38,719 bases of DNA from an archaeon (GCA_024278985.1 JAJRSC010000029.1:1-38719); one strand, 5' to 3'; counted from the first letter of the stretch, positions 1 through 2,418 are shown. A program made the numbers and translations. Notes: a model not told the origin generated them from the sequence alone.

Positions 1-191
1 ACTTTAAATTTAGTTATGTCTTTATCAAACATAACATCTTTTTTAATGTCAAAGTTTTCCTCTTTATTCCCCTCTCCCCCACTACTATCATCAAACTCAT
101 TCTCATTATCTATATATTTTCCACTTAAATAGGTGTTATCCCTTAGAAGTTTGTCATGGATTTTTTTATTAGTAGTTATTTTTTTTTTAAT
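1..191 (-). CDS. chlD: Partial -1-frame continuation of the chelatase gene (ChlD-type acidic linker), runs off the window edge
   Basis: Manual translation: the -1 frame is stop-free from 191 to 1 ([63 protein letters not shown]...). The +1 frame stops within 4 codons. An acidic linker is typical between the AAA+ and vWA domains of ChlD. The vWA domain itself is not visible in this window. Confidence 0.65.
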
Positions 192-1189
192 TTATTTATT
201 GTATCCTCCAATTTTTCTTTGTCTAATTTTGGCTGTTCAAATGGTTTTCTTCTTAATCTATGAGGTAAAGCTAACTCCATGGCTTCCTTAACATCCTCTA
301 AAATAACCTCTTCTCTACCATTGTAAGCAGCTAAGGCCTTAGCAGTTCTTACAACTGTTATATCTGCTCTATGACTATGAATTCCTAACTCTATACAAAC
401 TCCAGATATTAATTCTAAGAGTTCATCACTTATTTTAACTTTTTCTAAAAGTTCTCTTGCTTTGATAATCTTCTCTCTTAATTCTTTTTGTTTCTCTTCA
501 AACTTCTTATAAAATTCTTCAGGATTTTTTTGGAATTCTTCAACTCTTTTTATTATCTCAACTCTATCCTTAACATTATTTATTCCCTCTACATCAACCA
601 TTAACCCAAATCTATCTAAAATTTGAGGTCTTAATTCACCTTCTTCTGGGTTCATTGTTCCAACTAATATAAATCTTGATGGGTGCTTAACTTTAATCCC
701 TTCTCTCTCTACAATATTCCAACCTGATGCAGCTACATCTAAAAGAATATCTACAATATGGTCATCTAATAAATTAACTTCATCAATATATAGAATATTT
801 CTATTTGCCTCTGCTAAAATTCCTGGTTCTAAAGCTTTTATACCTTCTTTTATTGCCTTTTCAATATCTAGAGTACCTACAACTCTATCCTCAGTAGCTC
901 CAATTGGTAAATTTACAACTTTCATTTTCTTTTTAATTATTTTTAGTTCTCCTTTCTCCTTTTTTTCTTTACATATATCACATAATTCATCTGGAGAACA
1001 GTTAAATGGGCAGTCAGTTACTTCTATCTCTGGAAGTAAATCAGCTAAAGCTCTTACAGTTGTAGATTTTGCTGTTCCTTTCTCTCCTCTTATTAGAACT
1101 CCTCCAATTTTTGGATTAATTGCATTTAAAATTAAAGCTTTTTTCATTTTTTCCTGTCCAACTATTGCAGTAAATGGATATATAATCAT
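176..1189 (-). CDS. chlI: Class I chelatase AAA+ ATPase subunit (ChlI/BchI-like; probably serves cobaltochelatase)
   Basis: [10 protein letters not shown]-terminus, Walker [59 protein letters not shown] at 1189 preferred over 1195 from SD spacing (GAGGGA). Confidence 0.92.
179..188 (-). other. A10 slippery run, candidate -1 frameshift or transcriptional slippage site
   Basis: Minus strand reads TTA AAA AAA AAA TAA. The -1 frame has a stop at 194-192 just upstream, so any shift is confined to this run. Confidence 0.7.
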
Positions 1190-1216
1190 AATCATCCCTC
1201 TAAAATACCTCTAAAG

Positions 1217-1290: not shown

Positions 1291-2418
1291 ATGTTAAAAA
1301 CCAAAGACTTAGGTGTAGGATATAAAGAGATTGTTGTAGACAATATTAATTTGGAAATTAAAAAAGGGGAAATATTGGCTATACTTGGTCCAAATGGTGT
1401 TGGAAAATCAACACTTTTAAAAACATTATGTTCTTTTTTATCTCCTTTAAAAGGAGTTGTATATTTAGAATCTCAAATTCTTCATAATATAAAACCTTCA
1501 GAACTTGCTAAAAAATTGGCTGTTGTATTAACAGAAAGAGTAAATCCAGGAAATTTAACAGGATTTGATATAATTGCAATAGGAAGACATCCATACACTG
1601 ATTTATTTGGAAGATTATCAGAGAGAGATATTGAAGTTATAGAAGAATCTGCTAAGGCTGTTAATGCACTTCATCTTTTAGATAAAAAATTTTTTGAAAT
1701 GAGTGATGGAGAAAGACAAAAAATAATGATTGCAAGGGCATTAGCTCAAGAACCAGAAATTTTAATTTTAGATGAACCAACATCATTTTTAGATGCCAAG
1801 CATAAAATAGAATTAACTCTTTTATTAAGAAAGTTAGCCACTGAAAAAAATTTGGCAATAGTTGTAACACTACATGATATTGAATTAGCTTTGAGAGTAG
1901 CTGATAAATTGGCTTTAATAAAGGATAAAAAAATTATTGCATATGGTTATCCAGAGGATATTTTAAATAAAGATACTGTTAATTATTTATATGATGTTAC
2001 TTCAGCCAATTTTAGTAGAGAGATTGGATATTTTGAACTGATTAATAAATCAAAGAGAGAAATAAAAATTTTTGTTATTTGTGGTGCTGGGACTGGAGCT
2101 GGATTATTAAGATATTTAGTAAAAAATGGATATAAAATTTATTGTGGTATCTTACACGAGAATGATTTTGATTATATTGTAGCAAAAACTATGGAAATAG
2201 AAATAATCAAAGAAAAAGCATTTTCTCAAATATCAAAGGAAAATATTGAAAAAGCAAAAAATATTATTGATGAATGTGATTATATAATATATACTGAGTT
2301 TCCTGTTGGAGAAATTAATAAAGAAAATTTATATTTAATTGACTACTCAATAAATAAAAATAAAAAAGTTATTAAATACCAATCAGTTCAAGATTTAAAA
2401 TCCACTCATAAAATTTAA
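1291..2418 (+). CDS. ABC transporter ATP-binding protein, cobalamin/Fe-siderophore type, with C-terminal extension
   Basis: Walker A GPNGVGKS, signature variant MSDGERQK, Walker B ILILDEPT, H-loop TLHD, then about 120 extra residues starting IFVICGAGTG. Confidence 0.88.
   Translation: MLKTKDLGVGYKEIVVDNINLEIKKGEILAILGPNGVGKSTLLKTLCSFLSPLKGVVYLESQILHNIKPSELAKKLAVVLTERVNPGNLTGFDIIAIGRHPYTDLFGRLSERDIEVIEESAKAVNALHLLDKKFFEMSDGERQKIMIARALAQEPEILILDEPTSFLDAKHKIELTLLLRKLATEKNLAIVVTLHDIELALRVADKLALIKDKKIIAYGYPEDILNKDTVNYLYDVTSANFSREIGYFELINKSKREIKIFVICGAGTGAGLLRYLVKNGYKIYCGILHENDFDYIVAKTMEIEIIKEKAFSQISKENIEKAKNIIDECDYIIYTEFPVGEINKENLYLIDYSINKNKKVIKYQSVQDLKSTHKI

Follow-up and report, generated by a model that had tools for sequence, protein, structure and literature searches.

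Genes of the fs-chlD class, on which the primary paper is reportedly that of Antonov in Mol Biol Evol in 2020, hold a ChlI-like AAA+ ATPase in the zero frame and a linker followed by a von Willebrand factor A (vWA) domain in the -1 frame, with a poly-A slip site between the two. The frameshifted cluster was described by Antonov et al. 2013 (PMC3711429), who name Methanocaldococcus and Methanococcus and whose Escherichia coli reporters gave 63%, 40% and 10% of shifted product with runs of eleven (A11), nine (A9) and seven (A7) adenines, respectively (Supplementary Table S2). A 2016 recoding review (PMC5009743) restates the frameshifted chelatase case, and according to Kuznetsov et al. 2022 (PMC9227772) Methanocaldococcus fervens produces both its small and its medium chelatase subunit from a single fs-chlD gene; published descriptions, these two included, treat fs-chlD as ribosomal frameshifting. 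Here we analyse a chelatase locus on the minus strand at the left end of a 38,719-nt stretch of DNA from a methanogen-type archaeon (GCA_024278985.1 JAJRSC010000029.1:1-38719; contig C1 of its assembly, hereafter the window). We conclude from its sequence that it is very probably one recoded gene of the fs-chlD type, predicted to yield a 339-residue AAA+ product by standard decoding and a product of about 643 residues, with I, linker and vWA parts, by a -1 shift. The recoding arrangement is already known, because same-genus orthologues are the published, assayed examples: over 77 nt, the published A11 and A9 cassettes have exactly the sequence of the junctions in two loci of the same genus (L017 and L016). 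A preliminary description of the window, which had proposed that ChlI- and ChlD-size subunits come from one gene here and had called this a new instance of a described phenomenon, was accurate on the latter point and is supported on the former by the two-frame architecture and its conservation, and the phenomenon is better documented than it implied, with two reporter cassettes from the same genus.

The canonical Mg-chelatase motor (structures 8osf, 6l8d, 1g8p and 2x31) shares with the archaeal locus a ChlI-like AAA+ module, a BchD-like vWA domain and the residues of the metal ion-dependent adhesion site (MIDAS). There, however, ChlI/BchI and ChlD/BchD are encoded by two genes and the D subunit has its own diverged AAA+ domain, whereas here one identical AAA+ module would be common to both products; a methanogen-type archaeon presumably has no reason to make chlorophyll. 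In the aerobic CobNST enzyme an AAA+ ring (CobS) and a vWA adaptor (CobT) likewise drive CobN, and a two-tiered motor architecture is described for both ChlI/ChlD and CobS/CobT (bioRxiv 10.64898/2026.10.09.757910), but CobS and CobT are separate genes of another subfamily, and the protein here scores as TIGR02442/ChlI-ChlD type rather than as CobS/CobT. For the slip itself the nearest likeness is dnaX, in which one AAA+ gene gives two near-stoichiometric products (tau and gamma) with a common ATPase N-terminus through slippage on an A-run, by a ribosomal -1 shift on A_AAA_AAG in E. coli and by transcriptional slippage of about 50% on A9 in Thermus thermophilus (PMC3711429; Baranov et al. 2005). 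The slip yields the shorter product in dnaX but the longer one here, and the two families are unrelated beyond the AAA+ fold.

The zero-frame open reading frame (ORF) ends in TTA AAA AAA AAA TAA, and stop codons confine the frame change to 13 nt (191-179), between the TAA at 194-192 and the stop at 178-176, an overlap that is filled by the run of ten adenines (A10). The coordinates that the preliminary description had given for the run, for the stop that precedes the opening of the -1 frame and for the 63 open codons that follow were all confirmed, as was its statement that the +1 frame closes at once: that frame ends after three codons. The window edge is the end of contig C1 in an assembly of 30 contigs (1.107 Mb, 85.8% complete, 27.5% GC), and contig C4 of the same assembly starts with the reverse complement of window 1-312, the two contigs sharing these terminal 312 nt in opposite orientation with 99% identity, three single-nucleotide polymorphisms (SNPs) and A10 in both copies. 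Evidently the assembly breaks inside the chelatase gene because of strain heterogeneity. One SNP turns GGAGG into GGATG (Glu to Asp), and the other two lie in the linker, where they replace R by K and I by R.

On C4 the -1 frame runs on over C4:122-1045, 308 codons in total, with no stop before the vWA domain. The preliminary description had expected a vWA domain with a DxSxS MIDAS motif beyond the window edge, and the frame indeed carries one (Pfam VWA_2, E=4.4e-10) with an intact DASGS; BchD's integrin-I domain (2x31) is likewise matched by a profile of the -1 products (E=5.9e-16). The zero-frame product matches Pfam AAA_lid_2, AAA_5 and Mg_chelatase, scores 455.1 bits against TIGR02030 (BchI-ChlI) and aligns by sequence with the ChlI structure 8osf over residues 4-321 (E=1.5e-114). 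Its ATPase motif segments, RPQILDRFG included, align with the same segments of 8osf, and the ATPase motifs of the I module are intact; motifs of this kind go by the names Walker A (GxxGxGKS/T), Walker B (hhhhDE) and RPQxLDRF arginine-finger region. NCBIfam TIGR02442 ('putative cobaltochelatase', 641 positions) is divided between the two frames, the zero frame covering positions 1-332 (520.6 bits) and the -1 frame positions 362-640 (246.1 bits, E=6.8e-73), and the two separate scores sum to 766.7 bits, slightly below the cut-off for the whole protein, 779.45. If the frame moved by -1 in the run, these parts would be joined into a protein of about 643 residues, which is about the length of the model.

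The -1 product ends in ..FGFKYYKI (stop at C4:1046-1048), about 18 C-terminal residues short of eight aligned same-genus relatives, in which the consensus reads xELSKDKILDICKxL, and the linker is also shorter here than in the fs-chlD relatives (308 versus 308-327 codons).

Table 1. Features of the chelatase junction at the left end of the window (positions counted from the first nucleotide of the window).
Feature	Position	Strand	Basis
Zero-frame ORF, ChlI-size AAA+ chelatase subunit, 339 aa	1195..179	-	ORF listing; Pfam, NCBIfam and PDB matches
A10 homopolymer, putative slip site, zero-frame reading TT[A AAA AAA AAA]	179..188	-	A10 in both haplotypes; homologous run in the overlaps of relatives
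Zero-frame stop TAA, abutting the 3' side of A10	176..178	-	Sequence and ORF listing
Last -1-frame stop (TAA) before the -1 frame opens	192..194	-	Sequence
-1 frame, first 63 codons: Lys tract and acidic Asn/Asp/Glu-rich linker	1..191	-	Open to the window edge; continues on C4
Sole in-frame ATG of the -1 frame in the window, not a conserved start	30..32	-	First ATG of relatives lies elsewhere
GGAGG within the ORF, 16 nt upstream of A10, unlikely to be a stimulator	205..209	-	GGATG in the C4 haplotype
Second A-run, A7	161..167	-	Sequence

The two-frame arrangement is shared across the genus. We found the vWA frame in 16/16 other species-level genomes, at 57-66% identity, and compared the junctions of the 15 loci in which both halves are present (one further locus, L006, was dropped because a contig end cuts it); most of these genomes are assembled in 1-3 contigs. 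All 15 have a poly-A run in the frame overlap, which spans 13-31 nt between the opening and the closing stop, and in 14 of them the vWA frame stands in the -1 relation. The run is A9 in 13/15 and, in one locus each, A11 (L017) and A14 (L007); the A10 found here thus departs from the usual A9 and falls, within the same clade, between the assayed A9 (40%) and A11 (63%). Its zero-frame phase is constant, with NNA AAA AAA AAC in the A9 loci and TTA AAA AAA AAA TAA here, but the zero-frame stop abuts the run in our locus and comes four codons later, after CAT GAT GAA A, in 10/15 same-genus relatives. Across 29 sequences the MIDAS residues D149, S151, S153, T217 and D249 do not vary. The instance therefore adds to the published recoding family an orthologue with an intermediate run and a run-abutting stop, and calling such a locus a pseudogene, or chlI beside a hypothetical vWA protein, would be a misannotation.

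The vWA frame of L007 (G003:C1, a near-complete genome in 2 contigs; A14 at locus positions 1508-1521) is in the +1 relation. To make its long product, the mRNA would have to lose one A or gain two, or the ribosome would have to shift by +1 or -2; the A14 may otherwise be a homopolymer error, or a mutation that the strain acquired recently. The sister family contributes 13 loci, of which 10 have the -1 arrangement (8 with A9 and 2 with A6) and 3 are in-frame fusions, and single-frame fusions also make up 78 of the 80 best related distant loci. The two A6 loci (L036 and L037, genus g2) read TCA AAA AAC TAG, with a -1 relation and a 16-nt overlap; the heptamer A_AAA_AAC is minimal there, and the run is shorter than in any other frameshifted locus of the class. 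Two of the fused genes, L031 (G027; 652 codons, run at 1527-1535 of the oriented locus) and L033 (G024; 701 codons, run at 1398-1406), keep A9 in the same codon phase, and L033, when set beside its frameshifted congener L034, resembles the outcome of a 1-nt insertion just 3' of the run. A -1 slip in L031 and L033 would terminate after 8 or 2 codons and give a ChlI-size product, with the default and shifted products swapped and the polarity that of dnaX; no separate chlI was found in either genome. In the third fused gene (L032) the run is lost.

By standard decoding, translation of 1195..179 (-) would stop at the TAA beside A10 and release a 339-residue AAA+ ATPase of the ChlI type. A -1 move within the 13-nt overlap, in a substantial share of decoding events, would instead extend the protein to about 643 residues, with the AAA+ module followed by the acidic linker and then a MIDAS-bearing vWA (integrin-I) domain, the layout of a ChlD/BchD-type subunit, and the two products would form an I/D motor driving a CobN-type large subunit. 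By analogy with the assayed orthologues, A10 may shift at a comparable level, about 40-60%, which might supply I and D in roughly equal amounts (~1:1) for the two-tiered motor.

The run stands out against the genome, in which A/T homopolymers number 4,145 (length 6), 1,741 (7), 444 (8), 46 (9), 3 (10) and 1 (11), so that runs of 9 are about 10-fold rarer than runs of 8. ORFs of 150 codons or more, approximately 921 kb in sum, hold 27 sense-strand runs of at least nine adenines, of which 2 are A10, and an A10 within a 13-nt frame overlap exceeds chance expectation. The other sense-strand A10 in a long ORF, at about 14537 (+) of G000:C28, lies some 27 codons into a crude 328-codon ORF and may sit upstream of the true start. 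Besides the A-run no cis element is apparent. Folding of the 120 nt that follow the run is no better than that of shuffled sequences (z=0.39), and for the first 60 nt after the run in 16 sequences of the genus minimum free energies range from 0 to -7.1 kcal/mol (z from -1.42 to +1.37), with no stimulatory structure among them; folding used 37 C parameters, and such weak folds would be weaker at hyperthermophilic temperatures. The preliminary description had also drawn attention to the internal GGAGG and to the second A-run. Both are present, but we rejected the GGAGG as an upstream stimulator because it is GGATG in the second haplotype, and no equivalent occurs in the 30 nt upstream of the frame overlaps of relatives; the A7 was dismissed as a signal because runs of this length are common in the genome.

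As to which machine slips, we lean slightly towards RNA polymerase as the larger contributor, adding one A and converting A10 into A11 in part of the mRNAs. Ribosomal and transcriptional slippage are not mutually exclusive, and we infer the split between them from the run and its surroundings. The junction has the run of about nine or more A/T expected of transcriptional slippage, and the same holds for 23 of 25 further frameshifted loci in the class (A9-A14), although a heptamer would serve the ribosome; downstream structure is missing; the genomic drop in run counts lies between 8 and 9, such a drop being a criterion for slippage-prone length (Baranov et al. 2005); and the A14/+1 relative L007 cannot be served by a -1 ribosomal shift. 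Antonov et al. 2013 (PMC3711429) themselves allow for action of poly-A sites at the level of either transcription or translation, citing Thermus dnaX. More tentatively still, the frame change in this hyperthermophile-type lineage might be mainly the work of the archaeal RNA polymerase, with run length then an evolvable dial for the I:D ratio, a somewhat doubtful idea hinted at by A6 in one genus, by A9, A10 and A11 with the -1 relation, by A14 with the +1 relation and by fusions that keep A9. No cellular archaeal gene described as having programmed transcriptional slippage came up in narrow literature searches.

A purely ribosomal -1 frameshift, in which Lys-tRNAs re-pair on the A_AAA_AAA of an mRNA of templated length, aided by the slowly decoded UAA in the A site, is a credible, if not the favoured, account. 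The X_XXY_YYZ heptamer of a canonical -1 signal is always present (A_AAA_AAA here, A_AAA_AAC in relatives) and its zero-frame phase is conserved, the two g2 genomes retain the arrangement with the bare A_AAA_AAC, and ribosomal frameshifting is the term that published descriptions use. On the other hand, the stimulator of a canonical signal is lacking, most runs are longer than the seven adenines that would be enough, and L007 falls outside what a -1 ribosomal shift can do. Nor do the reporter assays tell the mechanisms apart, the 2013 paper allowing either level (PMC3711429).

Several points weigh against the reading that we prefer, that is, one recoded gene with RNA polymerase as the larger contributor to the slip. 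The A6 runs of the two g2 genomes are too short for usual polymerase slippage, and the treatment of fs-chlD as ribosomal in the literature counts in the same direction. The published shift efficiencies were measured in E. coli, not in an archaeon, the literature examined reports no native-host evidence for fs-chlD products, and 'suggested' is the word that a 2021 review of recoding in archaea still uses for the archaeal case. The run length of A10 is known from two assembled haplotypes of one assembly; a scan of metagenome contigs for the junction, allowing runs of 7 to 15, gave 0 matches in a collection from which records of this or a very near genome may be missing. Moreover, the sole link between the separate contigs C1 and C4 is the 312-nt overlap with its three SNPs, and therefore the two halves of the gene may derive from two strains. 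Finally, the -1 product has lost the approximately 18 C-terminal residues that relatives share.

The junction is nonetheless very probably a genuine recoding site, and neither an error nor the border between two independent genes. The latter view, in which chlI is followed by a vWA-only protein begun at the ATG at 32-30 or made by re-initiation after the chlI stop, draws on the presence of that in-frame ATG 54 codons into the -1 frame, on the annotation of such loci as two adjacent genes in RefSeq and on some internal initiation in some clusters (both Antonov et al. 2013, PMC3711429). We consider it very improbable. A scan of the C4 copy found no GTG or TTG start upstream of the ATG (codon 54), no other ATG precedes it, and no Shine-Dalgarno-like motif is seen at the usual spacing 5' of it, as the preliminary description had noted in calling it the only in-frame ATG and without a good Shine-Dalgarno sequence. 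Neither is it a conserved start, because the first in-frame ATG of same-genus relatives lies at codon 74-153, often at the MIDAS strand. The region that an independent start would leave untranslated is constrained as coding sequence: from the AAA+ stop to the first in-frame ATG, 26 frameshifted loci have 2,991 codons in all, with 0 stops in the vWA frame versus 135 and 636 in the other two frames, residues 5' of most relatives' ATGs are invariant in the 29 sequences (G74, G84, Y86, D98 and others), and here the TIGR02442 match begins 26 residues upstream of the Met, at residue 28 of the -1 frame. An independent downstream start, one of three findings that by the preliminary description would overturn its proposal, is in this way argued against; the second, a stop in the -1 frame ahead of any vWA domain, is absent, and the third, an A11 or A8 run, is countered indirectly by A10 in both haplotypes.

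A homopolymer error in sequencing or assembly, the true gene being a plain in-frame fusion with A11 or A8, has a precedent in the fusions that make up nearly all of the distant set (78/80) and 3/13 of the sister-family loci, and homopolymers are error-prone, the more so to be borne in mind with an assembly of this fragmentation and completeness. We give it hardly any weight: two haplotypes that differ by three SNPs both have A10, 14 of the 15 same-genus genomes share the -1 relation across their runs, and the zero-frame stop lies directly 3' of the run, as expected of a selected short product. Equally remote is phase variation at the level of DNA, with replication slippage switching between A10 (I only) and A11 (fusion), or decay of the D part, since, although run length differs between species (A9, A10, A11 and A14) and long A-runs are slippery for DNA polymerase too (PMC3711429; Baranov et al. 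2005), A10 stands in both haplotypes, the -1 frame is intact with its catalytic residues invariant across the 29 sequences, the frame relation is fixed in 14/15 species, and this is the only D-type gene in the assembly, beside two CobN genes.

These two CobN-family proteins, candidates for the large component of an ATP-dependent, three-subunit class I chelatase, pass their NCBIfam cut-offs: one lies at C4:4754-8374, 3.7 kb downstream of the chelatase gene on the same strand (NF004643, 2302.5 bits, cut-off 1926), and the other on C18 (TIGR02257, 1055.2 bits, cut-off 822.05). No other ChlI- or ChlD-type gene was found in the assembly of this incomplete genome, and the recoded gene is therefore the only visible source of both motor subunits. 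The preliminary description had judged the enzyme probably a cobaltochelatase. The family name holds, 'cobaltochelatase' being the curated name of the families of both the motor and the large subunits, but insertion of cobalt into hydrogenobyrinic acid a,c-diamide is a putative function here. Strict anaerobes have small chelatases of their own for B12 and F430. CobN-type chelatases of methanogens might insert nickel (Kaster et al. 2011), and in a methanogen context CobN1 was produced only under nickel limitation (2025 study).

The AAA+ ORF also contains a four-Cys segment at residues 62-75 (window about 1012-971, minus strand), where the cyanobacterial ChlI of 8osf has no Cys. The CxxxC..CxxC motif occurs in 28/28 loci of the class and in 35/78 distant fused homologues; it is absent from the remaining 43/78, including all Streptomyces, Kitasatospora and Streptosporangium records. 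Within this part of the family the segment may serve as a metal or redox site.

Among the neighbouring genes, the one at window 1291-2418 (+), divergent from the chelatase gene, encodes an ABC-transporter ATPase whose C-terminus is extended by about 135 residues; its best NCBIfam match, 'corrinoid ABC transporter ATPase', reaches 202.9 bits, far under the cut-off of 537. Directly downstream of the -1 frame and on the same strand, G000:C4:1062-1822 holds DUF1894 (E=8.1e-28) and DUF1890 (E=1.7e-39) genes, followed on C4 by MarC, UPF0146 and a block on the opposite strand (DUF7411, a dsDNA-binding protein and ribosomal protein S19e), after which comes CobN.

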